From a virus: a DNA stretch of 64,000 nucleotides. Position 1 is the stretch's first letter, and the number at the start of each line of letters is the position of its first letter. The notes beneath the pieces were generated by a model, which was given only the letters and a program-made list of their open reading frames with translations, searched no databases and was not told where the DNA came from. A program made the position numbers and the translations under genes. The stretch lies in the IMG/VR virus record IMGVR_UViG_3300014293_000001, positions 3,732-67,731 of that record, one strand, 5' to 3'. Below are positions 5,857 to 53,754 of the stretch, piece by piece.

Positions 5857-5865
5857 GAGGTATAT

Positions 5866-7962
5866 ATGGCTGATAAAATTATTAAAATTATACAAGCTGC
5901 TACTCCTAATATTACGATTAATCATAATCGTGATGGGAAAGATGGCAAAAATGGTAAAGATTTTAAATTTGAAGATTTCACTCCTGCACAGTTGGAAAAA
6001 TTAAAAGGTCCTAAAGGTGATAAGGGTGAAACTGGAGAAAGAGGTCCTGCGGGTAATGTAGGTCCTCAAGGTCCAATCGGTCCAAAAGGTAATGATGGTC
6101 CGCAAGGTCCACAAGGTATTCAAGGCTTAATAGGACCTAAAGGCTTACAGGGTGATGTAGGTCCAAAGGGGGAAATAGGCTCCCAAGGTCCTATTGGTCC
6201 TACTGGTTTAACTGGTCCTAAAGGCGATACAGGCGAACGTGGTCCTATTGGACCTAAAGGTGAGCAAGGTAACGTAGGTCCTGCTGGTCCTCAAGGATTG
6301 CAAGGTATCCAAGGTATTCGTGGTGAAGCGGGTCCTCAAGGTCCCCGTGGCGTACAAGGTGAGCGTGGTCCTATTGGTCCAATCGGTCCTACTGGTCTAC
6401 AAGGACCAAGAGGTGAAAGAGGGGAACCTTTCAAAATCAGCTCTATCCAACCATCAATAGCTGTTATGAACAGCAAAATTGGTACATTTACACAAAATAG
6501 TTTGGTTATGATACGTTCTAATGACGCTGATAACGGTAAGGTATTTGTTAAAACAGATACAGCTTTAGAATATTTAACAACCATGACTGGCGTAAAGGGT
6601 GATAAAGGTGATATTGGTCCACAGGGTCCTATAGGTCCAACAGGTCCACAAGGTCCTAGGGGTGCAATAGGTCCGCAAGGTTTACAAGGTAATGCAGGAC
6701 CACAAGGACCACAAGGTATAGCAGGACCTAAAGGAGATGCAGGTGAAAGAGGACCGCAAGGTCTAACTGGTCCAGTAGGTCCTAATGGTCAAAAAGGTGA
6801 TATAGGTCCAGCAGGTCCAAAAGGTAGTGATGGTAAAAGTGCATATCAATCTTGGTTAGGTCTTGGTAATACAGGTACAGAAGCTGATTTTATTAAAAGT
6901 CTTAAAGGTTCAGAACCAACACTTTTCAAAAGTGCAGCTAATATTGTCAAGGTATTAGAAATCCCATTAGATAGCGGCGTAAACCAATGTCAGGGCTTCA
7001 CATATAATGAAGAAGTAAATGCTTTTTATATTGCTTGTGTAAATAGTGACAATACTAAACAAGTATTCTATAAATACAATGCTGATTTCTCTACTTTAAT
7101 GTCCAAACAAACATTTACAGATAAAAATAGATTGGGTCATTGCAACACATTATGTTCTTATAAAGGTAAAATCTATGTAACAAATGGTTCTGTAAATCCT
7201 AATCAAGTAGCAGTTATGAATGCTAATATGGCGATTGAAGGAACGGTAAATTTCCCTAATAAAGTCTTCAATTTAGCCTATGATAAAGCTTCAAACAAAT
7301 TTGTTTCTATCTTATATACTGGTATAACAAAGCAACGTACTATTCAATATTATAATGAGAACAGAGTATTTATCAATACTAAAACAATGCCCATTATTTC
7401 TACAAGTCAAGATACAAATGGTGCGTTATATAACGGTCAAAGTATTGTATTTTCTGTTGGTGGCTATATTATTGAGAACATAGATGATAATGTTACTAAT
7501 ACAGAGGTAACATCTACACTTGAAGTTGAAGATTTTGCTATCTATAATGGAGAGGTGTATTTTACTGTAAACCGTAATGGTAAAGTTGAAGTGTATAAAC
7601 ATAGTTCAAACACTAAATACTTTAATAATATCAATTACACTCCTCCAAGTGTACCAGCATTAGCTAATAATACTCCATTAACTGGTAAAGATACATCTGG
7701 TGTAGAATGGGGTTTAATTAAACTTAATAACGGTAATGGCGTAGAAGTTGGCAATAAAGATAAACCAATGGCTTTATCAGCGTCACGCATTACATGGTGG
7801 GACGGTACAGCATCTCGTGCTATTTTAACAACTAAAGATTTTGATAATGCTTCTAAAACATTATATACAAAAAAAGAAACAGATGATACATTTATTTCTA
7901 AGGCTAAATACGAAGCAGATTTAACAGCCCTTAAAACAGCTCTTGATAAATTAAACCAATAG
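5866..7962 (+). CDS. collagen-like tail fibre / receptor-binding protein
   Basis: AGGAGG SD; two long Gly-X-Y blocks followed by a ~370-aa globular C-terminal domain. Confidence 0.8.
6007..6429 (+). repeat. collagen triple-helix (Gly-X-Y) coding repeat, block 1
   Basis: Uninterrupted [25 protein letters not shown]... in the translation. Confidence 0.9.
6589..6840 (+). repeat. collagen triple-helix (Gly-X-Y) coding repeat, block 2
   Basis: [25 protein letters not shown]...GPKGSDGKS. Confidence 0.9.
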
Positions 7963-16700: not shown

Positions 16701-19700
16701 GACATTGATTTAAGTGATGATATTCAACAACCAGAAGACGTTATATCTAAACATAAAGATACACTAGAAAGTATCTCCAAAGATATTAAATATATTAAAG
16801 ACAATCCTCATATGTCTTTACGTGAATACCAACGTATTTATAATGGTATCGTTGCAAAGCGTAATCATTTAGTTCGTCAATCTCCTGAGTTTGTAGATAA
16901 CTGGAATAATATTTTTAATAAAGTACCTAAATATAAGGTACCTAATGTAACTTCATTAATGCAAGCTATCCGTAAAGGGGAAGTTAAAATTCCTCAAACA
17001 ATACTAAGTTCATTCATTGATAAACCAAATCATTTTGATGAAAACTTAAAAGCATGGTTTACTAAAGATTATAATTTAACTGACGTAGAAAATACACGTG
17101 ATTTTGATAAAACACGTAATGCTATCATTTTGCAAGCAATGCAAAAAGCTTCTACACGTATCAAAACTATTGGTATGCAACAGCTTATGGAAGAGCTAGA
17201 CGACAAGAACGGCAACCATTTATTAGGTCGTTTTGTAAACCGTGCTATTCAAATGTACCCTGTTTACAGAAATAAAGATAAATATAGAAGTTTATCTGGT
17301 AAAGTCGCTGCTAAACGATTATTTCCAGAAGGTGCATCTGATTTTAGTAGTATGAATAGCCCTCTAGCTAAACGTGTATATGCTGATGTTAAGAAAATTG
17401 TACCAGCTGTAATGTCTGACAGAATTGCTAAGAATGGCAAAATTCAAGAAGAACGAATGAAAGATGCCAAAACTAAGAACCAAATTCAATCTGCATTGCG
17501 TTTAGGTGATTATGTAGATGGTGTATTAAATGCACATATTCCTGATGAGCAAGGCGGTACATATGATACTAACATCAAGATGAACATTAAACTTGACGAC
17601 GACTTTAATGTAGAAGCACCAATTCCAGAAGATGTTGATATTGAAGCATTTAAAGAAGCATTGGACTATTACCTATCTGATATGGGTATTATCGCTAACG
17701 ACGAAATGGTCGAAGATGGTAATACAGTTAAATTTGAGGCATCTTATATTCCAGAAACTGTATTTAACAATAGTGCTTATATCGCACAAGCCGCGTGGAA
17801 TACATTAGGTGGTGTAGTTAGACAACACGGTCATGTAATCTTAGATAATGCAAATCTTGACGAAGCAGGTCGTAAAGCGTTACAAACAGAAGCTAAGCAA
17901 GCATGGAAACAAGCTGGGTTTGAACTTATTTCTAACGATGATACATATACTTTAGTACCTATTGAAGAAATTCAAAAATCTATTACAGGTAATAAACAAG
18001 TATCAAATAATAAAAATACTAAATTCCATGAACCCGGTCCTATTGAAATGGATATTTTACGTAAAGTTGCCGATAGAAGCGAAGGTCTTGGAAAATTGTC
18101 AAATGACGAAATGAAAACAATCTTACAATCTATTATGCACCAACTTGACGGAGACCGTGAAGCGTATGTCGCTGTATTACAATATCTCAAAAATCACCCT
18201 GATTTAGAGATATATGTTGCAGATAGAATGTTTGACATGGACTCTCTTGATTATACATTTGATGGTTTCTATATGCCGTCAACCAAGCGATTGTATATGA
18301 CAAAAGATGCTATTATACCTGATGGAGATGTATTCTTGCACGAATTATTGCACAGTGCAACACACTACACTGGCGTAAATGAAATTGTACCAAATGTAAA
18401 TGACGCACTTAGAACATTAAGAAAGGAATTGGAATATGATGAAGGACTTGCAGGACAAATATACAGAGCTTCTGAACCAAGTGAAATACTTACATTTAGC
18501 GGAGAGCACTCAAAGAAAGATGTTGAAAACGCTCTTCAAAATGCCGCAGGCAACATTGGAAGTGCAGCAATCACTATGCGTGATGCTCTCTCTAATACAA
18601 GTGAAGGCAAAACAATTCCAGATTTCCGCAAAGCTAGAAGTGGGAAAGATAATATCCCAGTTGGAGAAAATGCACAGCGAGAAAGAAGTAGACGACTTAT
18701 TCAAAGAGCTAATGCCATTCTACAAGAACAAAAAATAACACCAGAACATTTCGCTAAAATAGCACTGATGGCTGATATGAAAGCGGACGAACCGTTTGAA
18801 TATGCTGATGAACTTATGGACACTCCAGTTCCAGCTGAAGTAAAAATACTTGTAGCGGCGATGACTATCCCTGAAATACCACCTAAATTGGTTAATAACT
18901 ATGATGGTTATAAGTTTATGAATGAAATGATGTCGTATGGTGGCTCTAAATTATTCTCTACTCACACAGTTAAAGAACATTTACGAAATGCATTGAGTGA
19001 TATGAGACAAGTAGGTAAACAAAGTGAGCTCACCAAATTAAATAGAGTAAACAATAAACCAGCAGATGTTTTAAATGCGATGAAACAAAAGATAGATTAC
19101 GCTATTAGAGCTAACGATAGAATTGACCAAGCAGAACAAAAATTACTTGCTGATATTATGGAACATGGTGGTGGTATCATTGAACGTATTAACCCATCAG
19201 AAGATGGTATATCTTTTGCATGGTTCCGTAAAATGCTACAATCTCCATCATCTTTAGCACGTAAACTTGTCCCAGAATTAAAACCTATTATCCAAGCAGC
19301 TTATGTTGCCGCACGTACAGCACGATATAAGCGTAGAGAATATATCGCAGACCTTGATAAATATTTCTTATCCTTAGACGAAAAAGCTGGCGAAGACAAA
19401 CAAATTAATAAACTCTTTGATGATATTGATAAACGTGGTCGTGAATTTGCACAACCAGTTGCAGTCCGCATCAATGGAGAATTAAAATACGCTATTATTA
19501 AACCTAACGATGAATTCACAGAATTTGGTTTAGGCGATGATAAACGTATGCGTAAATTTGTTAAAGCGGAACGTGAAAAGGGTAACCATGTTTACGTTGG
19601 TATGTCTAAAGATGTATACCAAGTTATTTCTAGTAAAGATAATATTGCCGCATACAAAGATAAAGCAAATGCTAATAAAGTAGCGATTGATATGTCTAAA

Positions 19701-23694: not shown

Positions 23695-24556
23695 CACTCT
23701 ATATGAGCAGAGGTGGACCTGTAATGTGTACGGGCGGACAACGGTCTTGAAAACCAATATAGAAGCCGACAGGGACTGACATATAGACTAAATATATCAG
23801 TTGATATCATATCGAGATAGTCGTTGACACTGCAAGCCGACTTTAAAAAATAACAGGGGGCGGACTCACCATTCCTCAATAGGGGCTGTTGGGCACGCCC
23901 TTTTGTCGTGCACTTTCCTAGATTTTGTCCCGTCGTAGATGGCAGTCGAAACAAACTCTTGTGAGTGGTAGATAAAGCTACACCTAGGCTACCTTGGTAT
24001 TAACCATGAAGTTTCGATAGTATACCAACAGTATACGTTGCTCCCATGTATATGGGGGCAATACCTCGGCACTACCTTGGGCAGTCATCAAGTATAGAAT
24101 ACAGTAGATATTCACTAAGATATATATAATACAATCAGCTACGAAGTAGCTACAAACGAAGTGCGTAGTAACAGATATAGAGTAGATGCTCAACATTACT
24201 ACCAATAAGTGATACAGTTACTTGGTATTCATAACTGGTGCGTTCGCAGAATATCTTCACTAGCGTTCAGATATTGATTAGTTGATAATACACATAAAGA
24301 AAAGAAATTACGAACAGAAATGTTCCCTCTTGGTATTATCTACAACTACAGCAACTAACGATGTGAGTAATTCACCTAGCGTAGCGGTTATACAGTATCA
24401 GTATTTTAGGTATTTAAAACACTACCACTTAAAGCGTAATAACATTACTACAACTTAGTATATAAAACAAAGAAGAATAGCATTACTCAGCGTAATATTG
24501 AATTACACTTCGTAATACGTTACACTTAATAGACCCCTTTATGGGGTCCTTTTTTA
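23695..24556 (+). ncRNA. candidate large structured non-coding RNA (3' portion of the P0/P1/P2 transcript)
   Basis: No + strand ORF of 60 aa or more. The only - strand ORFs lack an SD. Many hairpins, e.g. 24038-24061 and 24137-24151. The segment is bounded by the terminator at 24532-24556. Confidence 0.45.
24532..24556 (+). terminator. Rho-independent terminator
   Basis: GACCCC (24532-37), TTTAT, GGGGTC (24543-48), then CTTTTTTATTT. Confidence 0.8.
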
Positions 24557-35576: not shown

Positions 35577-36025
35577 TAATAGCACCAGAAGAAAATATAG
35601 TAAGATTATTACGACAAATGAAAGACCAAGGTTTTACTGATTTTGTTATATTAGATGGAAATCTCCACATTTTTGGCGACGGTATTGATGGAAAGATTAT
35701 GTATTTGCCTAAAACAATCATGACTACCTTATGTACATTTTTATTGTCGCATAGACCACCGTATTCTATATCTAAAATTATTGCGGATATTGAACATGAT
35801 TATGTTGGTCCAGATAAAGGATTTCAGTGGTTTGATTGTGTTCATAAACCAAATAAGCTTCGTTTCCGTGAAAGTAAACTTGGCGAAATGGTATTTACAT
35901 TAAATGGTATTGTACGTTGTAACAAAGGCGATAAAATCATCATTGGTGTTAATGGTGAGCAATACCCATGTGATAAAGAAATTTTTAAATTATTATATGA
36001 CGAGGTGGAAAATGCAAGTAATTAA
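35573..36025 (+). CDS. hypothetical protein
   Basis: AGGAGAAAAAG SD; ATGA coupling; 150 aa. Confidence 0.5.
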   Translation: MIIAPEENIVRLLRQMKDQGFTDFVILDGNLHIFGDGIDGKIMYLPKTIMTTLCTFLLSHRPPYSISKIIADIEHDYVGPDKGFQWFDCVHKPNKLRFRESKLGEMVFTLNGIVRCNKGDKIIIGVNGEQYPCDKEIFKLLYDEVENASN

Positions 36026-39000
36026 ACGTGATGGAACAACCGAAGAATATTTAGGTCAAAAAATTGAGCGTGCAGTAGAAAAGGCAATGTTTGCAACATA
36101 TCTTGTTATGGAGCCAACTATGTTAGCAGAACCATTCCAAGTGTCGTTATATGTATGGGATATTATTAAAGACGCAAAAGAACCTATATCTATTAAACAA
36201 TTAGAAAATATTATTTTTCGTAAATTAACTGATGATGGTTATACTGATGCCGCTGTTAATTATATTGAATACAAAACAAAACGTGATATGGAACGTAGTA
36301 AACATAAATTAACTCAAGAATTCTTGGACAAATATCCTGATTACCCTGATTGTATGGACGAGTTAGCTAAATTTGTGTATATTCGTACATATTCTCGTTG
36401 GTTGCCAGATAAAAATCGTCGTGAAACATGGAAAGAAACGTGTGCTCGTGCTATTAATGGTAATTGTTCTTATTTGCCTACGGCAGACGGTGAACCAGAA
36501 GCATTGTTTGATAATATGTTTAATTTACGACAACGTATTTCTGGTCGTATGTTATGGATGGGTGGTACTGAAGCATTGGAAAAAACACCATTAGCGGCGT
36601 ATAATTGTTCTGGTATTACGATGGATAGTATTCATGCATTTCATGAATTATTTTATTTGTTAATGGTAGGTACTGGTGTTGGTTGTCGTGTATTGAAAGA
36701 AGATATTGCAAAATTACCTCAGTTTGATACAACTAAAAAGTTATATCACGTTAAAACTCCTGTTCCTAAAGGTACAACATTAGAGCATACAAAAGTATCT
36801 AACTATGGTCATAGTGTTATCATTACAGTAGGTGATAGTAAAGAAGGTTGGTGTGAAGCATTAACTGCATATCTTACTACTATGACGGATAATGTAACTA
36901 CATCTATTTCTATTGATTACAGTTATATTAGACCTCAAGGTGCACCACTTAAAACATTCGGTGGTTATGCAAGTGGCTATGCATCTTTAAAAGAAATGTT
37001 TGAAAAGCTTCATAAAATTATTGTCAAAGAAAGCACCGATGGTAAATTACGTCCATTGAATGTTGCCGATATGTGTAATATTGTTGGGCAAAATGTAGTT
37101 GCAGGTGGTACACGCAGAACAGCAGAACTTATCCTATTTAGTCCTGATGATGAAGAAATGCTACACGCTAAGGAAAACCTAGACCCAGAACATTACTTCC
37201 GTTATATGTCTAATAACTCTATGTATTTAGAAGAAAAGCCTTCTAAAGAAGGTTTACGTAAGTTAATGATGTCTATTAAAGAAACAGGAGAACCGGGTTT
37301 TATTAATGTTGCTTCTGCTAAAAAGCGTCGTGAAGATTTTGATATATGTAATCCATGTGTAACTGGTACTACAGAAATCTTAACTAAAGAGTATGGTTAT
37401 ATTCAAATTAAAGACGTTGTTGACGAAGATGTAACAGTATGGAATGGTTATGATTGGAGCCCTGTAACACCTAGAGTAACTGGTTATGACCAACCTATGA
37501 TGAGAATTCAATTTTCTAATGGTAATGAATTAGAATGTACTAATTACCATAAATTTGTGATGCAAGATGGTTCTCGCATTGAAGCTCGTGAATTATGTAT
37601 TGGCGACAAATTAGAAAGATGGGAATTCCCTGTAGTTGAAGCAGATGAACGTGCTATGGGTATCTATTATGCAGAAGATTATGACCCATATATTCACGGA
37701 TATTATGCTGGTGATGGTATACAAAATAAACCTTTGATTTACTTATATGGTGAAAAACGTAAATTAGTAGATGTATTCAGCAATTCATCTGGATGTACGA
37801 TTAGTGAAGGGTTAGAACGTGATACAGTATTATTGCCTAAACAACTATCTAAATATCTTGTACCAGATGTTGGGGACGCAGTATATCATAGATTGCGTTA
37901 CTTAGCTGGTCTACTTGATAGTACTGGATGCGTACATTTCAGTGAAGGCTCTGTTGCTATTCCATCTATTGATAAAGAATTCCTTATTAAGATTTCTCGT
38001 CTGTTAAATACACTAGGTTGTCATGCTTCTATTCATTTAATGCATGAAGGTGGTTATCGTAAAGTGCCAGTTGAAGGTGGTCCTGATGATAGTCAAGTAT
38101 ATTATTGCCGACCTACATATAAATTAATTATTCCCGCTTGGTATGTTAGACGTTTAATTAATTTGGGTTTGTCAACTCATTATATTCATTTAGATGCTTA
38201 TCCAAATAGTAATGATAGCCAAGCTATTTATATCACATCTATTGAATATATTAGAAATTGTCCAACAGTATATTGTTTTACTGAAAATAAAAATCATACT
38301 GGTATTTTTAATGGTGTTATGACTGGACAATGTGCTGAAATTTTATTACCATCTAAAGCAGTATGCAACCTTACTAATATCAACGTATCTAAGTTTATTG
38401 ATGAACGTGGTAATGTAATGATACCTCAGCTTAAAGAAGCATGTAAATTATCTGCTCGTGCTTGTTATCGTTTAACTGAACCTGAATTAGAATTAGAAGG
38501 TTGGAGTGATATTCACCATAGAGACCGTTTAATTGGTTGCTCTATTACAGGTTGGCAAGATGCTGTAGCTGGTAATTTAACGAAAGAAGAACAAGAAGCA
38601 TTACTTGTATTAATGAAAATGTGGATTAACGATGCGGCTAATAAATACGCAGATGAAAACCATCGTCCTCACCCTGTATTGTATACAACAGTACAACCAG
38701 ATGGTACAGGTGGATTAATTAGTAGTTGTTCTGCTGGTGTTCATTATAATCATGCTCCATATTATTTCAGACGTGTACGTATTTCAACCAATTCTCCATT
38801 ATACCAAGCTGTTAAATATTTAGATGGCTGGCAAATTGATAATGAAGTTGGTCAAGGTGATGATGGTAATACAAAAGTAATTACATTCCCTTGTAAATCT
38901 AAATCTACAATTACAAAATATAATGTATCAGCTATTGAACAATTAGAACAATATAAGATGATGCAAACATGTTACGTGGACCATAATACATCAATTACTG

Positions 39001-39281
39001 TTACAGTAAAAGACAATGAATGGGACGATGTAATAGATTGGTTAGATAAAAATTGGGATTGTGTAGTAGGTATTTCATTCTTGTCTCTAAATCAAGATTA
39101 CTATCCGTTAATGCCTTATGAAGAATGCACTAAAGAACAGTACTTAGAATTAAAATCTAAAATGTCTCCACTTGACCCAGAATTAGTCAATAAATATGAA
39201 TTTGAACTACAAACTGTAGGTAAAGATTTTGAAATTGATGAAAGTGGAGAATGTGAAGATGGTCATTGCCCAGTGCGGTAG
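36012..39281 (+). CDS. ribonucleotide reductase large chain (class II/NrdJ-like, tentative class) interrupted by an intein
   Basis: GAGGTGG SD before ATG 36012 'MQVIKRDGTTEEY'; 'GGTRRTAELILFS'; active site 'NP|C..intein..|CAEILLP...CNL'; C-terminal Cys pair 'CEDGHC'; no small-subunit gene in the window. Confidence 0.75.
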   Translation: MQVIKRDGTTEEYLGQKIERAVEKAMFATYLVMEPTMLAEPFQVSLYVWDIIKDAKEPISIKQLENIIFRKLTDDGYTDAAVNYIEYKTKRDMERSKHKLTQEFLDKYPDYPDCMDELAKFVYIRTYSRWLPDKNRRETWKETCARAINGNCSYLPTADGEPEALFDNMFNLRQRISGRMLWMGGTEALEKTPLAAYNCSGITMDSIHAFHELFYLLMVGTGVGCRVLKEDIAKLPQFDTTKKLYHVKTPVPKGTTLEHTKVSNYGHSVIITVGDSKEGWCEALTAYLTTMTDNVTTSISIDYSYIRPQGAPLKTFGGYASGYASLKEMFEKLHKIIVKESTDGKLRPLNVADMCNIVGQNVVAGGTRRTAELILFSPDDEEMLHAKENLDPEHYFRYMSNNSMYLEEKPSKEGLRKLMMSIKETGEPGFINVASAKKRREDFDICNPCVTGTTEILTKEYGYIQIKDVVDEDVTVWNGYDWSPVTPRVTGYDQPMMRIQFSNGNELECTNYHKFVMQDGSRIEARELCIGDKLERWEFPVVEADERAMGIYYAEDYDPYIHGYYAGDGIQNKPLIYLYGEKRKLVDVFSNSSGCTISEGLERDTVLLPKQLSKYLVPDVGDAVYHRLRYLAGLLDSTGCVHFSEGSVAIPSIDKEFLIKISRLLNTLGCHASIHLMHEGGYRKVPVEGGPDDSQVYYCRPTYKLIIPAWYVRRLINLGLSTHYIHLDAYPNSNDSQAIYITSIEYIRNCPTVYCFTENKNHTGIFNGVMTGQCAEILLPSKAVCNLTNINVSKFIDERGNVMIPQLKEACKLSARACYRLTEPELELEGWSDIHHRDRLIGCSITGWQDAVAGNLTKEEQEALLVLMKMWINDAANKYADENHRPHPVLYTTVQPDGTGGLISSCSAGVHYNHAPYYFRRVRISTNSPLYQAVKYLDGWQIDNEVGQGDDGNTKVITFPCKSKSTITKYNVSAIEQLEQYKMMQTCYVDHNTSITVTVKDNEWDDVIDWLDKNWDCVVGISFLSLNQDYYPLMPYEECTKEQYLELKSKMSPLDPELVNKYEFELQTVGKDFEIDESGECEDGHCPVR
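37356..38330 (+). mobile_element. 325-aa intein with a LAGLIDADG homing-endonuclease domain inside the RNR active-site motif
   Basis: Starts 'CVTGTTEILT'; LAGLIDADG-like 'GYYAGDG' and 'LAGLLDSTG'; ends 'HTGIFNGVMTGQ' followed by Cys. Confidence 0.75.
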
Positions 39282-45292: not shown

Positions 45293-45326
45293 AAAAAAAG
45301 CCCCAATTAAGGGGCTTATTTTTTTA
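45293..45326. terminator. bidirectional rho-independent terminator at the convergence of the + and - blocks
   Basis: A-run, AAGCCCC (45298-304), AATTAA, GGGGCTT (45311-17), T-run. Confidence 0.8.
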
Positions 45327-45706: not shown

Positions 45707-46084
45707 TTAAATGCTATTAGTTTCATCGTATATAATTGGGTCTTTACCATAAGTATTATCCCAATCAACAAACTTACTATTAACGGGGTAAAAATACCCA
45801 TAAGGAGACCATACACTACTAAAACACAACTGTTGAATAGTTTCTGCGTCGTAAATACAATTTACTAAATCATCTTCTACTTCACTTTCTCGTGATTCGC
45901 TAAGTGTTCTATATAAATTGTCAAGAAGATTTTTCAAAGCAAACACCAGTGTCCACGGTACTTCCACATTAAATGTTTCTTCCAATTCTGATAAAATATA
46001 TTCTACGCTATAATATAATGTTTTATCATTGAATTGAACACCATTGATATAACCTTTAAAATCATGAACAATCTTTTCTTTCAT
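45707..46084 (-). CDS. hypothetical acidic protein
   Basis: AAAGGAG SD before ATG 46084. The track's N-terminal extension 'MMMNMNMM..' overlaps the upstream gene and is rejected. Confidence 0.5.
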   Translation of the reverse strand: MKEKIVHDFKGYINGVQFNDKTLYYSVEYILSELEETFNVEVPWTLVFALKNLLDNLYRTLSESRESEVEDDLVNCIYDAETIQQLCFSSVWSPYGYFYPVNSKFVDWDNTYGKDPIIYDETNSI

Positions 46085-46385
46085 TATATCTCCTTTTACA
46101 TTTACTACTACAAAACCTCCCATATTTACGTTCTTGAATTGGTGGTAATCTACCACCACACACACAGCAATGAGTAGCTTTAGAACCACGTTTACCATTA
46201 ACACCATCATATTCATGTTCATCATCATATTGTTGCCATTTCATGTCAAACTTTTGTTGCCATGTTAATGTATCTTCAGGCGGTTTAAAACTTTTTCGTG
46301 TTGCTGGATTTTTACAAGCATCACATAATACATCGTTGCCGTGCACTTCAAATAATGTGCTACAACTATGACATTTTCTCTGCAT
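46062..46385 (-). CDS. double zinc-ribbon protein
   Basis: AGGAGG SD; 'CHSC...CDAC' and 'CCVCGG...CSSKC'. Confidence 0.55.
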   Translation of the reverse strand: MQRKCHSCSTLFEVHGNDVLCDACKNPATRKSFKPPEDTLTWQQKFDMKWQQYDDEHEYDGVNGKRGSKATHCCVCGGRLPPIQERKYGRFCSSKCKRRYNERKDCS

Positions 46386-46395
46386 ATAACCTCCT

Positions 46396-46575
46396 TTATA
46401 TTAATTCAGCATAATACGTTGTATTAGATACTGAACGATTGCTATACATATTCATATAAAACGCATATGTATCATCACGCCACTTTTGTACTCTATATTG
46501 CACTCTTGTAGTCAATATCTCAGACGTAACAAAGCACCCACACAATGAGCGAAATCTATCTTCTGGTCTAATCAT
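46396..46575 (-). CDS. small early paralog family, member 1/13 (59 aa, below the track cutoff)
   Basis: GGAGGAAGC SD; 'MIRPEDRF...'. Confidence 0.45.
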   Translation of the reverse strand: MIRPEDRFRSLCGCFVTSEILTTRVQYRVQKWRDDTYAFYMNMYSNRSVSNTTYYAELI

Positions 46576-46584
46576 GCTTCCTCC

Positions 46585-46776
46585 TTATACAAAAAACTTA
46601 ACTTCATAAATCATATTACGTGACATACTCTTACCGTAACGCCCTATGTAGCAATATTTTAATGGTTCTACATCTATACTCAAATAATGGTCATGCAATA
46701 CATTAAATAATAAGTCTTGTTCATACGCATCATATTGGATAGAAGTTGCTTTTAATATATCGCTTTTCCTTATCAT
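46585..46776 (-). CDS. small early paralog family, member 2/13
   Basis: GAGGTG SD before ATG 46776; 'MIRKSDIL...'. Confidence 0.5.
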   Translation of the reverse strand: MIRKSDILKATSIQYDAYEQDLLFNVLHDHYLSIDVEPLKYCYIGRYGKSMSRNMIYEVKFFV

Positions 46777-46786
46777 ATTCACCTCA

Positions 46787-46996
46787 TTAGTATCTTTGTA
46801 ATTTAGCTGCACATATAGATTTATATATTATTGCATTGTAAGAATCTCGTGTATCATATCGCATAATATATAAACCATCTATTGTTAAAACAGTTTGACC
46901 AAATTTGTTTGGAGGACAACAATAACCGTATGTATATGTCGTAGACGCATAATTTTTAACAAGATATACTCTTAACATATTTTTTGTATCAATCAT
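46787..46996 (-). CDS. small early paralog family, member 3/13
   Basis: AGAGGTG SD; 'MIDTKNML...'. Confidence 0.5.
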   Translation of the reverse strand: MIDTKNMLRVYLVKNYASTTYTYGYCCPPNKFGQTVLTIDGLYIMRYDTRDSYNAIIYKSICAAKLQRY

Positions 46997-47199
46997 TCTA
47001 CACCTCTTGTTAATACCACTTTAAATGGTCTTATTCTATCTACATAATAACGTTCACCATATAAATAGTAGAATAATTGTGAAATCGCACATTCGTCTTC
47101 AAGACGTTCATAATTTTCCATATATCTAGTAGTTTTAACTATAGTCGGTCGTTTAATAACATCTGTAAATTGATATAAATATTTTGTATTTAACATCAT
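46993..47199 (-). CDS. small early paralog family, member 4/13
   Basis: AGAGGA SD; ATGA coupling. Confidence 0.5.
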   Translation of the reverse strand: MMLNTKYLYQFTDVIKRPTIVKTTRYMENYERLEDECAISQLFYYLYGERYYVDRIRPFKVVLTRGVE

Positions 47200-47399
47200 T
47201 ATCCTCTTTTCTTCACGTATTTTATTTCAATAACTTTACGATATGCATTATTTTTATTACTATAATTATTTCTATAAGCTAATTTTAATGGGCATAATAC
47301 ATCAGCAACACGTGTCGGATGAAATATAAAGCTAACGTTACCTATACAATTAGAGTAATGTTTAGTTGTTAAAATTACACCATCTGCCGCTCTTATCAT
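47199..47399 (-). CDS. small early paralog family, member 5/13
   Basis: GGTGAAG SD; '..AYRNNYSNKNNAYRKVIEIKY'. Confidence 0.5.
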   Translation of the reverse strand: MIRAADGVILTTKHYSNCIGNVSFIFHPTRVADVLCPLKLAYRNNYSNKNNAYRKVIEIKYVKKRG

Positions 47400-47578
47400 T
47401 TTAACTTCACCACTCTAAACATATTATGACATTGATATAAGTATATAAAATTATCCAACATTACAAATGGTACTGCGTATGTTGATAAATTATTATTATT
47501 TATGAATTGAGATACACGTATTCTCTGTTTAGGATGTACTATATTGACTTGATACAGTCTATCATTTTTGTTTATCAT
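47396..47578 (-). CDS. small early paralog family, member 6/13
   Basis: 'MINKNDRLYQV..'; ATGA coupling. Confidence 0.5.
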   Translation of the reverse strand: MINKNDRLYQVNIVHPKQRIRVSQFINNNNLSTYAVPFVMLDNFIYLYQCHNMFRVVKLK

Positions 47579-47580
47579 AA

Positions 47581-47766
47581 TTAATCACATAACCCCTCAT
47601 ATTTTATTTCAATCATCTGCTGGTAATTATACATATATTTATAAATATATAATAATAGAATATTACCATCATATATATATCCAATACGTTCTTTACACGA
47701 TAGTTTATCTACTACATTCGGATAATCTGTATATGTACATATTACTTTGGCTTTGTTATGTATCAT
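47581..47766 (-). CDS. small early paralog family, member 7/13
   Basis: GGAG SD; 61 aa. Confidence 0.45.
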   Translation of the reverse strand: MIHNKAKVICTYTDYPNVVDKLSCKERIGYIYDGNILLLYIYKYMYNYQQMIEIKYEGLCD

Positions 47767-47953
47767 AATCTAGCTCCATTATTGCAAAAATATAATTATT
47801 ATCGTATCTCATTTGTAATATGTCTATTAATCGCCATTTGACATTATGACATACGAATATACATTCAGATGTATCTACTTTATGACGAATGAATGGCAAA
47901 GTTACATCATTGGATGTTTCTTTTATCAAAAAAGTGTCATTCTTCTTCATCAT
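47756..47953 (-). CDS. small early paralog family, member 8/13
   Basis: AGGTGAAG SD; 'MMKKNDTF...MRYDNNYIFAIMELDY'. Confidence 0.5.
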   Translation of the reverse strand: MMKKNDTFLIKETSNDVTLPFIRHKVDTSECIFVCHNVKWRLIDILQMRYDNNYIFAIMELDYDT

Positions 47954-48137
47954 ACTTCACCTGTACTAATTCATAATTATATCCAGCGGAATATTGATTA
48001 CGAAATATATTGTATACTCCACGAATCTGTTCGTGTATAAATAATAATGGATAGTTGTGTGTATCACCTCGTAGTTCGTAAGCCACTGCATTGGCTCTTA
48101 TTTCAATTAATCGAACACCATCATTTTTATTCAACAT
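47937..48137 (-). CDS. small early paralog family, member 9/13
   Basis: AGGAG SD; 'MLNKNDGV...FRNQYSAGYNYELVQVKY'. Confidence 0.55.
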   Translation of the reverse strand: MLNKNDGVRLIEIRANAVAYELRGDTHNYPLLFIHEQIRGVYNIFRNQYSAGYNYELVQVKYDEEE

Positions 48138-48321
48138 TTTTTACTCCTGCTATGGTATATTCATATCCATTTTTATAATTTCTAATATAAACATCACGTA
48201 TACTATTTAAATCGTCATATGTAAAATACCAACTGTAAGGTTGCACTGAACTGCATAATTTACCAATAGTTTTCGCTGCTCTCATTTCTATTAATGAGAT
48301 TTGATGATATATATTTAACAT
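48127..48321 (-). CDS. small early paralog family, member 10/13
   Basis: AAGGTGAAG SD; '..IRNYKNGYEYTIAGVK'. Confidence 0.55.
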   Translation of the reverse strand: MLNIYHQISLIEMRAAKTIGKLCSSVQPYSWYFTYDDLNSIRDVYIRNYKNGYEYTIAGVKNVE

Positions 48322-48506
48322 AACTTCACCTTAAATGCATTTAACATACCCTGATAATCATTTCTAGCATATTTGTTGCGGAACATTTTTTCGACAAGTA
48401 CTGTACTGATGTAAAAATCAGCACGATAATATCTACTTGCTCCACCACAAAATTGTGGTACATATTCTATTGCTGTCATTCTAATTTTTTGATTTTTATT
48501 TATCAT
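48315..48506 (-). CDS. small early paralog family, member 11/13
   Basis: GAGGTG 6 nt before ATG 48506; 'MINKNQKI...FRNKYARNDYQGML'. Confidence 0.55.
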   Translation of the reverse strand: MINKNQKIRMTAIEYVPQFCGGASRYYRADFYISTVLVEKMFRNKYARNDYQGMLNAFKVKLC

Positions 48507-48516
48507 TCGTATCACC

Positions 48517-48708
48517 TCAATCTTCTAATTTCAAATAAAACACACCGTTATCATCTTTATCGTAACACGCAATTAGTTCATTACACAGATAACAATCAGG
48601 TGAGCTATCTGTTTGTTGATAATCCGTTGTAATAGGACCAAATAATTTGTTAATTATATTATAATTAACTGTATAATAGCTAGTAACTGATGCATAACGA
48701 TTTAGCAT
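48517..48708 (-). CDS. small early paralog family, member 12/13
   Basis: AGAGGTG SD; 63 aa. Confidence 0.45.
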   Translation of the reverse strand: MLNRYASVTSYYTVNYNIINKLFGPITTDYQQTDSSPDCYLCNELIACYDKDDNGVFYLKLED

Positions 48709-48887
48709 ATAAACACCTCTTCACTTATTTGATATACAAAAGCAGCACCGTGCTTGTAGTTTCTTGTAAACAGTGCTAATAATGTCATTGAAGATAATTC
48801 TGTTACAGGATTAGGAAAATCTTGTGTCCATCTGAAATGATTTTTGTATGTTGTTATTTTTACTTTAAATGTTTTTTGTTCTATCAT
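48702..48887 (-). CDS. small early paralog family, member 13/13
   Basis: GAGGTGAAA SD; '..TRNYKHGAAFVYQISEE'. Confidence 0.5.
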   Translation of the reverse strand: MIEQKTFKVKITTYKNHFRWTQDFPNPVTELSSMTLLALFTRNYKHGAAFVYQISEEVFIC

Positions 48888-48914
48888 AATTTCACCTCAT
48901 CACTCTTTTTTATA

Positions 48915-48932
48915 GGGGAGCCGAAGCTCCCC
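48915..48932 (-). other. stable 7-bp hairpin with a UUCG tetraloop (on the - strand RNA), no U-tract
   Basis: GGGGAGC CGAA GCTCCCC on the + strand. It lies between the 48939 gene stop and the SD of paralog 13. Confidence 0.6.
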
Positions 48933-48938
48933 ACTGGA

Positions 48939-49496
48939 CTATTGGGAAACTTCAGCAGTATTTACTTCTTCATTCACTTCATTTTCTACAGGTGTTTCTG
49001 TAGCTGTTTCAGAAGGTGTTTCAGGAGTTGGTTCTGTTGGTGCTTGAACCATTACAACTGGAGTTGGGTTGGACATTTTGTAGTGTTCGTAGAATTCGGT
49101 ACCCATTTCACGGTCAATTCGTTTTAATTCTTGAATTAACAAATAAGATGTTTCAGCACCACGTTCGATGTATTTCTTAGTGCGTGCTTTAATAGCCATT
49201 AACACGATTTGTTGTAAATCACGTACTTTAACAGTACCAGCTTTAGATACGAATACGAATTTCTTAGCCGTTTCTTCGTTTAAAGAGATAACAGGGATTT
49301 TAATAGTATCTACTGCATCTTTACCAGTGTTAGTAGCGGCAAATTCAGAAATTGCACGAGCAACACCAGATGGAGTAGCAGAATATACTTTAGTTTGTTT
49401 TAAAGAATTGGCAATAAAACGTAATTGTTCTTTATCAGATAAAGCAGAAACGTAGTTAGTAATAATCAAGTTCATTTGTGCAACAGTTGTAGCCAT
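48939..49496 (-). CDS. hypothetical protein with an acidic Pro/Thr/Glu-rich C-terminal tail
   Basis: AGAGGT SD; tail 'PTEPTPETPSETATETPVENEVNEEVN'. Confidence 0.55.
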   Translation of the reverse strand: MATTVAQMNLIITNYVSALSDKEQLRFIANSLKQTKVYSATPSGVARAISEFAATNTGKDAVDTIKIPVISLNEETAKKFVFVSKAGTVKVRDLQQIVLMAIKARTKKYIERGAETSYLLIQELKRIDREMGTEFYEHYKMSNPTPVVMVQAPTEPTPETPSETATETPVENEVNEEVNTAEVSQ

Positions 49497-49500
49497 AATT

Positions 49501-50688
49501 TTATACCTCTTTCATAGTATGATTAATAATTGTTTTCTTAATATTTTGAGTTCGCAATCTGTATTCATCAATGCTATCTTTAGCATAGAGATATACAATA
49601 TTGCAAGGTTCTGTCTGACCAATACGATGTATACGGTCTTCAGCTTGACCCATTAGAGAGGGCGACCACGGATATTCAATAAATATAGCCGTGTGTGCTT
49701 TGGTTAGGGTAATACCAACAGCACTTGCCTGTAAACTACAGATAATCAAATTTGTGTGATTAGCATTCGAGCCAGAGTGCATCTGGAAATTGTCAATATT
49801 TTGTTGTCTATTTCGTTTAGATTGACCACCGATGATGTATTTTGCATCAGGAAATTCCTTTCTTAATTTTTCTACAATATTTCGATGGTGTGCAAATACC
49901 ACAAGGGACTCACCTCTTTCTAATACTTTACGAATGTATTCTATACAATAAGGAAGTTTTTGTTTTAACACTTCTTTATCGTATTTTTCAATCTCCTCAA
50001 ACGAAGTTGGTTCTGGTTGAGATATAGTGCAACAAGGAACCATGTGGACAGTTTTTGGAGGAAGATTTTTTTGTACATTTTTAAGACGTCTTATCCATAC
50101 TTTTTTCATCGCTTCATTGAGCTTTGATAAATTTGAATGACCGTCGTTTGATGTACCCCATGGTGATTGATAAGCTCCACAGAAATCTCTTAGGAATTTA
50201 TCTTTACCACCAAATTTATATGTAAGTCCTGCAATCTCTAATTGACATAACAACTCTTTAGGTCTGTTTAATACTGGTGTACCTGTAATCATAATACGAT
50301 AACGAACACCTTCAACCAATTTCATCGCTGCTTTAGTACACTGAGATGTGGGAGTTTTTAAAATATGACATTCATCGAATATAACTTGTTGTATATTAAG
50401 GCGTTTAAGTGAAACTAAATATCTGGTTAAACGCTCATAATTTGTAATGATAACTTTGGAACTCATATCATCAACATTTACATCAATTCCAGCCCATGTT
50501 TTCAACTCTCTTTTCCAGTTTTCTTTTAGAGGAGCAGGACAAACAACTAAAGTAGGGAACTTATTTCGTTCCTTAATTAAAGTGCATACTTGAACAGTTT
50601 TACCTAAACCCATATCATCACAAAGGAAAATAGATGATTGGTTAAGCATTTTATTAACGCCTTGTCTTTGATATGGGTATAGTTTCAT
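49501..50688 (-). CDS. SNF2-family helicase/translocase
   Basis: 'LCDDMGLGKT' (motif I), 'DECH' (II), 'QAEDRIHRIGQ' (VI). Confidence 0.8.
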   Translation of the reverse strand: MKLYPYQRQGVNKMLNQSSIFLCDDMGLGKTVQVCTLIKERNKFPTLVVCPAPLKENWKRELKTWAGIDVNVDDMSSKVIITNYERLTRYLVSLKRLNIQQVIFDECHILKTPTSQCTKAAMKLVEGVRYRIMITGTPVLNRPKELLCQLEIAGLTYKFGGKDKFLRDFCGAYQSPWGTSNDGHSNLSKLNEAMKKVWIRRLKNVQKNLPPKTVHMVPCCTISQPEPTSFEEIEKYDKEVLKQKLPYCIEYIRKVLERGESLVVFAHHRNIVEKLRKEFPDAKYIIGGQSKRNRQQNIDNFQMHSGSNANHTNLIICSLQASAVGITLTKAHTAIFIEYPWSPSLMGQAEDRIHRIGQTEPCNIVYLYAKDSIDEYRLRTQNIKKTIINHTMKEV

Positions 50689-51812
50689 TATGCCTCCAGT
50701 CTTACAGTACCAGTTTTGTCATCGTAGACACCTTTCACTGTACCGATAACACTATAAAAAATATCGTTTAATGAACCACTAACATGTGGAAAATTTGTGA
50801 CAAAGAATACGCAAGACTTATCTTTAGTATTCTCAGTTAAGTCCCATACAGCACCTTTTTCATCTTCAATAAATTCCATCATAGCATTCATTTTTTCTTG
50901 ATTCATTGGCGTTTTACCACCATTTGCAATACATTTAACCATTGTGTATGTGGTTTTTACCTTTTCTTCTGCTTTAGGTACTTTATACCCAGATAAATAA
51001 GAGGAGTATTTTAATCCATATCTATTAAAGAATGGTGTTTGTACCCAACCATCTAGCACAACATAATGTTTACCACCGTCGATATAATGTTCAATGATTG
51101 TATTACCGTAACCTTCTACTAATTTAGTAAAGTTTGCTAACCAATCTGGTTCTCCAACTGGCGGTGTAATTTCATATTCATAGTAGCTAGTATAAGATGT
51201 ATAACCACATCCACCATAATAGTAACTACTTTTGCGTTCTTCATAACTTGTATTAGAATATTGAATACCTGTTTCAGTAGAAGTATTCCAAGAACCAAGG
51301 ATAATCGCACTTTTTTTACCAAGGATAGCGTACTTGTTTGTACCCATCGCCTTTTTGATAAGATATTGAGTGCTTTCTTTATACAGTTTATCTTTAAGAG
51401 GGAATAACACTTGTGCACCAAAGTACATTGTATCACTATAAGGTGATAACATGCCTTCTTTTGGTGTAAAGTCACTCATTACACCATTATGAGAAAAACC
51501 AATATCTGTAAATACATCAGTTTCACGCATTGTTTCCAAATTGTCGCTAAGTGCAAACGGATGGCAACATTCTGGCGAAATTTTACCAGACGTTGCAATT
51601 CTAAAGTGGAATACACGGTCCCTGTCAGTAGGAAGGTCTTTCACTGCATTCCAAAAATCATCAAAATTCATAAACCCTTTACGAATATGAACTTTCTTTT
51701 TGTTATCATCGTAAATCATGAAACCAGCACCATCAGGATTATTTACGAAGCAGTTTCTAAATTCTTTCTCTGATAACTCTGTATACTTAGATGCATAAGC
51801 AATAACGCACAT
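50688..51812 (-). CDS. class-II (Ntn) glutamine-amidotransferase-like / thiol-peptidase-like protein with a ~190-aa C-terminal extension
   Basis: AAAGGAGG SD; N-terminal 'MCVIAY' nucleophile Cys; 'NPDGAGF'. Confidence 0.6.
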   Translation of the reverse strand: MCVIAYASKYTELSEKEFRNCFVNNPDGAGFMIYDDNKKKVHIRKGFMNFDDFWNAVKDLPTDRDRVFHFRIATSGKISPECCHPFALSDNLETMRETDVFTDIGFSHNGVMSDFTPKEGMLSPYSDTMYFGAQVLFPLKDKLYKESTQYLIKKAMGTNKYAILGKKSAIILGSWNTSTETGIQYSNTSYEERKSSYYYGGCGYTSYTSYYEYEITPPVGEPDWLANFTKLVEGYGNTIIEHYIDGGKHYVVLDGWVQTPFFNRYGLKYSSYLSGYKVPKAEEKVKTTYTMVKCIANGGKTPMNQEKMNAMMEFIEDEKGAVWDLTENTKDKSCVFFVTNFPHVSGSLNDIFYSVIGTVKGVYDDKTGTVRLEA

Positions 51813-53539
51813 TATTTTGCCTCCTTTAATAATCCTGTCTTCTGTAAGACATTACGTAACTCAATGTATTTTTTATTTTTCGCTATACGAGCGATGTTAC
51901 TCCAACCAATATAGCGTATAGAATTCATATTCGCTAAGTCGGTAATTACATCGACAAACTGAATATAAGCATGAATTCGCTCTACATCTTGTGTGGAGCG
52001 GAACATGCGGAACTCTACAGTCTGACTAGGACAAAGATTAATTGCACGATATTTTTCGTTTTCATCTTTTGCCACAGTATAAATTTGAGATAACTCCTTG
52101 ACTGTCATTCCATACTTTTGGCACCAATTACTATCTTCATCAGTTCTGCAAGCAAAAAGCATTAATGTATCAAAATTATTTTCAACAAATCGAATAATTT
52201 TGGCAATTTCATTATTGCCTTTGAAGAAATTACGATTTACATGAATATGTAAACCTGAGTTTGCACTAGACTCACCATGCAAATCTTGCACACGTTTAAA
52301 GAATTTATCATAGTCGATATTACTTAAATGGAATTGAGGTGTACATGGGTGAGTAACGAACTCCATTCCGTCGCGTAATGAGCCGTCATGTTTAGCATAG
52401 ACAATTTTGTTTAAATCACCAATAATCAAATCAGCTCTTTCATTACTTTCGCCACAACGGTGGAATTCCATTTCAATACCAAGGAATTTCTTGCCTTCAC
52501 CATTAAACACTGGCTCTGGTTTAAAATTGTAAGAATGTAAGCCAGTCAATGGAGCTGCACTTTGGGACGAATAATATTTATTGTTTGAATGTCGATAAAA
52601 TTCATTACGTCGTGCCTTACTAAACTTCTTGCCCAAATCTTCTACAAAAATAAAGTCTTCTTCAGTTGCACCATATGTTCCATTATGACATACAAGTCTG
52701 TCTTTTACGCTAGGGTGGAAATAAACTTTACCAGTGCCAGAAATATAACCTTCTATCATTTCTGTTTTCAATCCTGTTTGATGAGATAGAGGACATGTAA
52801 CAATGAATTGGTCTACTAATACTGGGTGTATACCCGATTGTTTAACAATGTCACGTTCATCTGCAATATAGAACGGCACGCCAGTAACTTTACAAATGGC
52901 AAAATCAGGATAATCCACAAGTTTATCTAACTCATCAAAACCAATGTATAGATTTTCATAATCTTTACCTAAAATCAAGTGGAAGTTTTGAGGGTTGTAC
53001 CAATTACCACTTACAAACGATTTCTTAATGAACTCTGGTTTGTCATCTTTATTCATTCGCATGATACCCAGTTTTGTTCTAACTATAATAACATCATTAC
53101 CCAATGGTTTACCTGTTATAGCACAATGCGTATTAATATTACCAATTACTTCTGTATCATCGTCTACTACCAAGATTTTACTGTCGATAGCAGCACAGTA
53201 GTAATATACCACATCGCCACGTGTCATAACAGTTAAGATATTGTTATATCTATCTTTAAGGACTTGACCAACATGATATTTACATTTTCTATGTGTGTCT
53301 GTAGTACAACCATAATTAATAACAGTTCTACCTGTTACTTTTTCCACTACTAATTCACTATCAGTAGGTGTAATCTGTAATTCAGAAGGTAAAAGAACAG
53401 TACATTCATCAGCTAGAAAGAAATCACGTGAATCATTACTAGCACATAAATATCCGTATGCTCCTTCATGGTTATAACCATCGCCAATTACACGATAAAC
53501 ACTACGTCCGTGTTTAATTTTAATGCCTAATGTAATCAT
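51812..53539 (-). CDS. amidoligase-family (Amidoligase_2-like) protein with a ~330-aa unknown N-terminal region
   Basis: 'FLGIEMEFHR...AKHDGSLRDGMEFVTHP...SGLHIHVNR'. Start ATG 53539 (TAATG overlap) is preferred over the track's 53548. Confidence 0.55.
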   Translation of the reverse strand: MITLGIKIKHGRSVYRVIGDGYNHEGAYGYLCASNDSRDFFLADECTVLLPSELQITPTDSELVVEKVTGRTVINYGCTTDTHRKCKYHVGQVLKDRYNNILTVMTRGDVVYYYCAAIDSKILVVDDDTEVIGNINTHCAITGKPLGNDVIIVRTKLGIMRMNKDDKPEFIKKSFVSGNWYNPQNFHLILGKDYENLYIGFDELDKLVDYPDFAICKVTGVPFYIADERDIVKQSGIHPVLVDQFIVTCPLSHQTGLKTEMIEGYISGTGKVYFHPSVKDRLVCHNGTYGATEEDFIFVEDLGKKFSKARRNEFYRHSNNKYYSSQSAAPLTGLHSYNFKPEPVFNGEGKKFLGIEMEFHRCGESNERADLIIGDLNKIVYAKHDGSLRDGMEFVTHPCTPQFHLSNIDYDKFFKRVQDLHGESSANSGLHIHVNRNFFKGNNEIAKIIRFVENNFDTLMLFACRTDEDSNWCQKYGMTVKELSQIYTVAKDENEKYRAINLCPSQTVEFRMFRSTQDVERIHAYIQFVDVITDLANMNSIRYIGWSNIARIAKNKKYIELRNVLQKTGLLKEAK

Positions 53540-53754
53540 TATAACCATTCCCCCTCAATAATTCTATCAATATCAATAATATTAGATGGTTTTCTGCGGA
53601 ACTCTTTTTCCGTATAGAATGGGTTGGAATAAACTTCGATAGTACCATCAACACCATCTGCTGTTCTACCAACTTGTGTCAAACAATCTGATAGTGTACG
53701 TGTTTTCATAGCGTAAGCTATAGGATAAAATCTTTTAACCATTTTTTTAGGCAT
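53539..53754 (-). CDS. hypothetical 71-aa protein
   Basis: AAAGGTGG SD before ATG 53754. Confidence 0.5.
   Translation of the reverse strand: MPKKMVKRFYPIAYAMKTRTLSDCLTQVGRTADGVDGTIEVYSNPFYTEKEFRRKPSNIIDIDRIIEGEWL

Follow-up and report, generated by a model that had tools for sequence, protein, structure and literature searches.

A sharply bounded island of 13 small, mostly paralogous genes in a non-structural operon of an uncultured phage

The DNA analysed here (hereafter the window) comprises 64 000 nucleotides, positions 3732–67 731 of the virus record IMGVR_UViG_3300014293_000001, and represents most of the genome (∼67 kb) of an uncultured phage; public contigs of ∼66–68 kb carry the same genes. 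Between positions 46396 and 48887 its − strand contains a tandem array of 13 tiled open reading frames (ORFs), designated m01–m13, each of which encodes 59–69 amino acids. On balance, we favour the view that this array is a clade-specific multigene family that arose by tandem duplication and that is likely to provide a variable host-interaction repertoire. Membership of a single family is well supported for most of the genes, probable for m07 and unproven for m02. The proteins constitute a new family without known relatives that is restricted to a single uncultured phage clade, in an arrangement that is familiar from large DNA viruses and unusual for a mid-sized phage.

Array organization and coding status

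The 13 adjacent genes are of similar size, lie on the same strand with start-to-start distances of 179–220 nt and are separated by gaps of at most 10 nt or overlap by 1–17 nt. The upper limit of ∼12 nt that the initial annotation gave for both gaps and overlaps holds for the gaps and is exceeded by the largest overlap, the 17 nt shared by m05 and m06. A Shine–Dalgarno (SD) sequence of the GAGGTG or AGGAG type is located 5–12 nt 5′ of the ATG codon in 12 of the 13 ORFs. The assignment of an SD to every ORF therefore stands with the exception of m08 (47396–47578; 60 residues), the weakest gene call, which starts 2 nt past the stop codon of m07 and has a badly spaced site (GAGGGG) 14 nt upstream of its start. 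The ENA gene caller left out m08, although W-type and L006-type lineages alike preserve its ORF (cluster 3). The first gene of the array, m01 (48702–48887; 61 residues), follows a GAGGTGA SD and its product is an exact match to database protein P0013, and the last gene, m13 (46396–46575; 59 residues), follows an AGGAGG SD. For m03 (48315–48506) and m12 (46585–46776), both with 63 residues, the mechanical ORF list gives longer versions with GTG starts (75 residues from a GTG at 46812 in the case of m12). Judged from the sequence, the ATG preceded by a GAGGTGA SD is likely to be the better start in both, in agreement with the initial suspicion that two members either fall below a 60-residue cut-off or have mis-called starts.

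No in-frame stop codon interrupts the 828 codons of the array, compared with 89 and 108 stops in the other two frames of the same strand and 51–57 in each frame of the opposite strand. Since the region has a G+C content of only 29% (0.289, the lowest in the window), this cannot be attributed to chance. The tiling is also kept in at least seven lineages, comprising all of the relatives that were found. With an open frame throughout and a conserved tiling, the 13 − strand ORFs are real, separately initiated genes, as originally proposed.

Family relationships

Direct all-against-all BLASTP comparison of the 13 proteins detects only the pair m04/m05 (E = 3e-8 over 61 residues) and, weakly, m07/m09. 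As this was insufficient, profiles were built for each cluster from the relatives: BLAST sorts 344 array proteins from five lineages into 66 clusters; two further lineages, L036 (the sixth) and L069 (the seventh), were added later. Comparison of the 66 cluster profiles with hhalign (2145 pairs) yields 28 links at P ≤ 1e-3 and 93 at P ≤ 1e-2, compared with 0 and 24, respectively, for reversed decoys. In a leave-one-group-out analysis with hidden Markov models (HMMs), the tested group was excluded from the model and protein cores lacking the first five and last four residues were scored against 500 shuffles; P values of ≤0.002, <0.01 and <0.05 are reached by 13, 24 (0.7 expected) and 37 of the 66 clusters, respectively. 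A more stringent trim of seven N-terminal and 11 C-terminal residues, which removes the A-rich start and every SD-encoded residue, still leaves 28 of 64 clusters at P < 0.05. None of the 18 other small ORFs in the window matches the family HMM.

The lineage L036 provides bridges between groups: its protein x09 ties m08 to m04–m06, and x12 ties together m11 (46787–46996; 69 residues) and its paralog m12 (E = 5e-6 and 2e-8). With L036 included, BLASTP closure at E ≤ 1e-4 joins m04, m05, m06 and m08 and joins m11 to m12 without any decoy hits. In a profile network that counts links of at least 25 aligned columns, the groups m01/m13, m03/m10, m04–m06/m08 and m11/m12 are present at P ≤ 1e-4, and strict merging (P < 1e-4) ends at such small groups. 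The network grows to nine members at P ≤ 1e-3, 11 at P ≤ 3e-3 and 12 of the 13 at P ≤ 5e-3, while decoys give no link of this length up to P = 0.01 (0/549).

The strength of the connection varies among members. The profile of m01 connects at P = 6e-10 with the L006-type clusters c6 and c7 and at P ≤ 1e-4 with the m13 group; m13, in turn, has a profile link (P = 2e-8) to the genes that come last in the L006-type arrays. The hhalign link between m03 and m10 (46993–47199; 68 residues; the best-conserved member) has P ≤ 1e-5; in the leave-one-group-out analysis m10 reaches P ≤ 0.002 and m03 reaches P = 0.004, improving to ≤0.002 after stringent trimming. The profile of m06 merges with that of m04, m05 and c17 at P = 8.5e-5. 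A leave-one-group-out P of ≤0.002 is obtained for m09 (47199–47399; 66 residues), which hhalign links to the m04–m06/m08 group with P = 4.6e-4 over 28 columns. The same value is obtained for m07 (47581–47766; 61 residues, ten of which are Tyr; GGAG SD), but rises to 0.1 after stringent trimming. The acidic protein m02 (48517–48708; 63 residues; calculated isoelectric point 4.2; GAGGTG SD) has a leave-one-group-out P of 0.28. Its best hhalign match (P = 0.002) spans only 24 columns, and a single BLAST link, at 5e-4, connects it with an m04-type protein. The profile comparison and family HMM that the initial annotation called for thus find the ORFs to be mostly related, with no reversed-decoy links at P ≤ 1e-3; the description of the ORFs as diverged paralogs is upheld for the 12 that the network joins, nearly all of them beyond the reach of pairwise comparison, and not for m02.

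What the proteins share is positional: an M-[IL] start, a hydrophobic strand at approximately residues 7–14 and, ∼15–25 residues before the end, a helix with a hydrophobic-x-x-x-Tyr pattern followed by a short hydrophobic strand. Both the M-[IL] N-terminus and the hydrophobic-x-x-x-Y motif with its terminal strand are found in all 13 proteins, so that the shared terminal motifs noted initially are retained in this form, except that part of the C-terminal motif is an artefact of SD coding. Translation of the following gene's SD (GGTGAAG, GAGGTG) accounts for the C-terminal V-K/E-V residues, and the N-terminal MxxKND motif reflects A-rich codons; both were discounted as family signatures. Tyrosine makes up 10.4% of the residues of the array proteins and 4.7% of those of the other proteins of the phage, and is doubled relative to other proteins encoded by DNA of the same composition. 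An apparently invariant Tyr column in the MAFFT alignment (64 of 64 representatives) was rejected as proof of homology, since a comparable column arises in 50–62 of 64 composition-matched shuffles owing to the 10.4% Tyr content. The proteins encoded by m04 (48127–48321; 64 residues), m05 (47937–48137; 66 residues) and m06 (47756–47953; 65 residues) form a subfamily that can be aligned without gaps and that has an invariant Glu12 and Tyr49 (the E12/Y49 subfamily). The array proteins are soluble, with grand average of hydropathy values of −0.17 to −0.60 and isoelectric points of 4.2 to 10, and none of them contains a membrane segment.

A variable island with conserved borders

Relatives were collected by scanning IMG/VR with the SNF2 helicase of the phage, which gave 34 loci, and further contigs were taken from ENA and Logan; a wider locus search of IMG/VR with an alignment of the 185-residue protein encoded immediately upstream of the array revealed no new lineages. 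In every locus that spans the slot between the 185-residue gene and the zinc-ribbon gene downstream, the slot is filled with 7–16 tiled ORFs of 53–71 residues, and the length of the array proteins is 61.2 ± 4.1 residues (261 unique proteins). The window DNA can be aligned with that of the other lineages at 72–84% identity up to positions 48879–48861 and again from positions 46394–46416; in between, nothing is alignable. Conserved flanks enclose a variable island with sharp borders.

Arrays of different lineages are colinear. In L036, for example, the positional counterparts x02/m02, x08/m06, x11/m10 and x13/m13 show 44, 37, 62 and 49% identity, respectively. The copy-number comparison among relatives that had been suggested shows variation from seven to 16 genes per array, with only seven in L010, and the E12/Y49 subfamily has one copy in L006-type genomes, three in the window and four or five in L036, which indicates duplication or loss within the array. 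In L004, a near-identical relative (95% nucleotide identity), a natural deletion of 261 nt (L004 6008–6105, equivalent to window 48121–47861) leaves the first five codons of m05 fused, in the wrong frame, to the final third of m06; both genes are thereby inactivated.

Evolutionary rates

The pooled ratio of nonsynonymous to synonymous substitution rates (dN/dS; Nei–Gojobori method) is 0.70 for the array, compared with 0.14–0.28 for five flanking genes over the same loci. The lowest value of an individual cluster is 0.07, for m13, the most constrained member, and the highest is 1.1; clusters c28 and c29 have values of 0.2–0.3, and values close to 1 are found for c7, c13 (which corresponds to m11), c15 and c19. 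No hot segment is apparent along the ORF, with dN/dS values of 0.45–0.71 by decile. Between the window and L007, dS is 0.40–0.45 for the helicase and the 185-residue gene, 0.74 for the zinc-ribbon gene and 1.29 for a 374-residue gene of the same operon, and the positional array counterparts differ at proportions of 0.64 of synonymous (pS) and 0.49 of nonsynonymous (pN) sites. A test for positive selection, or for divergence between lineages faster than neutral, found the synonymous divergence within the array (pS 0.64) to be as deep as elsewhere in this mosaic genome. Deep divergence combined with weak constraint is sufficient to render the array unalignable and positive selection is not needed. 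The array was initially described as a rapidly diversifying family; its elevated dN/dS and unalignable DNA agree with rapid change, whereas diversifying (positive) selection is not demonstrated.

Database and structure searches

No array member matches Pfam, PHROGs or NCBIfam at or above the cut-offs, and the best E value in profile sequence searches of the PDB is 0.09. A HMMER search of 1.84 billion representative proteins with a subfamily profile gave 12 hits, one of them a low-complexity false hit, and all hits traceable to a contig of at least 40 kb belong to this phage clade. From 5.8 billion proteins, word-indexed searches retrieved nothing but unnamed proteins of 37–108 residues, located on phage contigs of ∼66–68 kb wherever the contig has sufficient length to judge, and one fuzzy superfamily profile searched against the same 5.8 billion proteins returned only clade members, with poor E values.

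The structure of m05 was predicted using AlphaFold2. The predicted local distance difference test (pLDDT) score rises from 49.8 for the subfamily alignment to 70.0 once the other paralogs and their orthologs are included. The better model contains strands at residues 7–14 and 31–40 and a helix at residues 41–51. A Foldseek search of the PDB and BFVD with this model gave best E values above 1 and template-modelling scores of at most 0.45, which at a pLDDT of 70 is weak negative evidence as to the fold.

Proposed origin and function, and alternatives

In the scheme that we favour, a unit of ∼190 bp, consisting of an SD and a gene of ∼61 codons, would have been duplicated in tandem many times and the copies would have diverged in place to ≤30% identity. 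Most likely, all 13 genes are translated in a coupled fashion from one polycistronic mRNA of the leftward operon, because stop and start codons overlap or are at most 10 nt apart and there are no internal promoters or terminators above background. Each product would be a small soluble protein rich in Tyr (10%), with a predicted layout of an N-terminal strand, a variable middle (containing a second strand in the better m05 model) and the helix with the hydrophobic-x-x-x-Tyr pattern; a short C-terminal strand is predicted only in the m05 model of lower confidence. The genes of the island are under weak constraint, vary in number and are individually dispensable. Small size, individual dispensability, turnover between lineages and parallels with phage counter-defence amplifications and viral multigene families together suggest, tentatively and with doubt still slightly the greater, that the products are small binders, each of which may neutralize or redirect a variable host component, and that the array is an accessory anti-defence or host-takeover arsenal of the kind that the initial annotation considered plausible. 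The more specific notion that a single minimal Tyr-rich scaffold of ∼61 residues is present in 7–16 copies per genome, with surfaces re-tuned copy by copy, appears doubtful.

Several observations weigh against the favoured scheme. Positive selection was not detected, no cluster being clearly above a dN/dS of 1, and a value of 0.7 fits near-neutral drift as well as it fits an arms race. There is no significant profile link for m02, and m07 enters the main network only at P = 0.0014–0.005, through the protein L027_07. The best pLDDT reaches only 70, and the two m05 models conflict as to strand 2 and the C-terminal strand. A search of the neighbourhood revealed neither a homolog of known anti-defence genes nor a marker gene. 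Finally, near-identical copies do not occur in any genome of the five lineages that were checked, the closest pair in the window being m04/m05 with 28% amino-acid identity, so that amplification is not ongoing on the sampled time scale.

The main alternative, which we consider unlikely, is that the array is near-neutral filler: the ORFs would be translated and the proteins would do little, with selection keeping only the open frames and their length. Ribosomes might thereby be kept on a long mRNA, avoiding polarity or decay before the zinc-ribbon gene, or the genome might be held at packaging size. The overall dN/dS with values close to 1 in several clusters, the absence of hot or cold spots of constraint along the ORF, the lowest G+C content in the window and the natural loss of members without replacement (L004 and L010) all favour this explanation, and deep dS with relaxed constraint accounts for the divergence between lineages. 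Against it stand the family-wide profile signal in the protein cores, a length held at 61 ± 4 residues, a Tyr content doubled relative to proteins of the same DNA composition, the existence of constrained members (m13 as well as c28 and c29) and frames that have stayed open through a dS of at least ∼1 in DNA of 29% G+C. Rather less probable is a mixed accessory cluster of the sort seen in many non-structural operons of phages, in which a few paralog groups (m04–m06/m08, m11/m12, m03/m10 and m01/m13) lie among unrelated ORFans and further resemblance derives from AT-rich composition, A-rich codons after the start, C-termini that encode SDs and a generic strand–helix pattern. Such a cluster would agree with the few pairwise BLAST matches, with strict merging that stops at small groups, with the almost equally good MAFFT Tyr column of shuffled sequences and with the isolation of m02. 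It is difficult to reconcile with the absence of long links among decoys of the same composition, a signal that outlasts trimming of both termini, the failure of the other small ORFs of the phage to match the family HMM and the merging of formerly separate groups by one added lineage (L036); moreover, the paralog alignment raises the AlphaFold2 confidence by 20 points.

It is also conceivable, at a distinctly low probability, that the genes are immunity or exclusion paralogs, each of which protects the infected cell or the phage from a different toxin, bacteriocin or competing phage. The tandem, small, diverged and copy-variable architecture would suit this role, for which comparable arrays have been described (PMC3482391), as would soluble members that range from acidic to basic. 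No toxin gene or cassette was found beside the array, however, no Pfam or NCBIfam immunity family is matched and the membrane segments that are a trait of many exclusion proteins are lacking. We retain tandem duplication of one family, with a probable host-interaction role, as the preferred explanation.

Genomic context

Tail and structural genes occupy 1–23 kb of the + strand, and replication genes (a Pol III α-like polymerase, a primase–helicase, Erf, ribonucleotide reductase and dUTPase) lie at 25–45 kb on the same strand. A leftward operon of 13 kb extends from ∼58.6 to 45.3 kb and encodes an amidoligase, the 374-residue protein, the SNF2 helicase, the 185-residue protein, the array products and a Cys-rich 107-residue protein. 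A bidirectional intrinsic-terminator hairpin at 45298–45317 (AAGCCCC…GGGGCTT), with T-runs on both strands, lies at the convergence of the rightward replication genes with the leftward operon. The array, which ends 1 kb before this terminator, is separated by ∼10 kb from the divergent region that lies upstream, near 58.6 kb, and is thus distal in a non-structural operon. Its initial assignment to an early region is not demonstrated; the array lies behind the amidoligase and SNF2-helicase genes, and the promoter signal is at background (35 promoter-like sites compared with 36.3 expected). No cultured phage is close: Megablast gave no match, and the SNF2 helicase and the DnaE-like polymerase each reach at most 33% identity. 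A search of 185 579 reference genomes aimed at identifying the host found no copy.

The upstream anchor of the island is the 185-residue gene (48939–49496, − strand), which shows 64–100% amino-acid identity in all relatives and has no match in Pfam or PHROGs. The downstream anchor, the gene of the Cys-rich, zinc-ribbon-like protein of 107 residues (46062–46385, − strand), shows 60–99% identity in the relatives and has weak treble-clef/RING matches in Pfam that fall below the cut-offs. In the mechanical ORF list it overlaps the next ORF (45707–46228, − strand) by ∼160 nt. Public gene calls use a later start for the latter, giving a product of 125 residues, and its long N-terminus rich in Met, Asn and Val is probably untranslated. 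Just downstream of the zinc-ribbon gene, the W-type relative L068 (ENA ERZ27230118) carries at 5820–6767 a gene that is absent from the window and encodes a 315-residue protein in which YadA-like adhesin domains are weakly or faintly recognizable; this is a second variable spot adjoining the array.

The 51 nt spacer before m01 (48888–48938) contains, at the upstream border of the array, a GGGGAGC-UUCG-GCUCCCC hairpin (48915–48932, − strand) with a 7 bp stem and a 4 nt loop. It is unique within the window and present in all lineages, with one compensatory change from G–C to A–U and one paired deletion. A U-tract is absent on both strands and the hairpin is hence not a canonical terminator; it may be an RNA-processing or stabilizing element that separates the array from the upstream genes. 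An N4-like interpretation, in which the hairpin would serve as an early promoter and a giant ORF of 2800 residues in the tail and structural module (13788–22190, + strand) would encode a virion RNA polymerase, was also dropped as unsupported in view of the dimensions of the stem and loop and the lack of any PHROGs match to this ORF.

Directly upstream of the island (49501–53548, − strand), a trio conserved in all relatives encodes a 578-residue protein with an amidoligase domain, the 374-residue protein, which has a weak GATase-like match, and the SNF2 helicase; a role of the trio in modifying DNA or protein is conceivable. A full-length match to the Rfam EGFOA RNA (RF02955), with a score of 72 bits against a gathering threshold of 37.7, is located at 23912–24018 (+ strand), between the structural and replication modules. 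In the ribonucleotide reductase ORF (35904–39281, + strand; 1125 residues), two separate stretches match a PHROGs profile of 701 positions, a pattern which suggests that the ORF may carry an insertion or intein.

Comparison with known systems

The MGF110, MGF360 and MGF505 families of African swine fever virus (ASFV) and corresponding families of poxviruses and herpesviruses consist of tandem diverged paralogs with strain-variable copy number, dispensable members, fast evolution and a link to host interaction. The array described here resembles them in its tandem, fast-evolving and diverged paralogs, variable copy number and individually dispensable members. These families, however, belong to eukaryotic viruses, encode larger proteins and have partly known functions, whereas the present array is found in a 67 kb phage and is built from a unit of ∼61 residues without a sequence or fold relative.

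Among phage loci, acr–aca loci and other anti-defence islands normally contain mutually unrelated members and are flagged by an adjacent regulator gene (aca) with a helix–turn–helix (HTH) domain. The array shares with these clusters fast-evolving genes for 50–150 residues without homologs, variability between close relatives and conserved borders, but differs in that most of its members are paralogs. No HTH domain was found in the flanking genes and no homolog of a known anti-CRISPR protein among the members. SPO1 genes 37–60 and the early genes of T4, T5 and T7 are non-paralogous and lie beside early promoters or at genome ends. Like these host-takeover modules, the array is a string of small SD-bearing genes in a non-structural operon; its distal position in that operon and the paralogy of most members set it apart.

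In bacterial polymorphic toxin systems, tandem arrays of immunity genes are found next to toxin loci (PMC3482391). These are likewise tandem arrays of small diverged paralogs that are read as a repertoire against variable partners, but they are bacterial and adjoin toxin genes or cassettes, of which there is no counterpart here, either as a toxin gene or as a match to an immunity family. Gene accordions provide a further parallel in the tandem copy-number change of a small phage accessory gene, as seen in the segmental amplification of a counter-defence gene, T4 tifA, against toxIN (PMC9391042) and in SegB-driven amplification in T6 (PMC13096335). Accordion copies are identical, recent and unstable, whereas the members of the array show ≤30% identity and their gene order is stable over lineages at a dS of ∼1. 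By analogy, accordion-like amplification is a plausible first step in the origin of the array.

Biological implications

Arrays of more than ten paralogs are well known in large eukaryotic DNA viruses and are unusual in a phage of 67 kb, where this one takes up ∼4% of the genome. Should its members prove to be nearly neutral, the array would be a clean example of long ORFs that persist under weak protein-level constraint, with a bearing on the ORFans of viral dark matter. If instead the members bind host factors, they would form a naturally occurring set of variants of one tiny scaffold that could help to uncover new anti-defence activities. They would also offer a possible minimal protein scaffold and a case in which an accessory repertoire was acquired through duplication instead of gene capture. 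Were the copy-by-copy re-tuning of a single scaffold to be true, one phage would be equipped with a whole set of inhibitors directed at polymorphic factors of host defence or of the host surface, and the family would represent a phage counterpart, with a fold that has no known relative, of the immune-evasion families of eukaryotic viruses.

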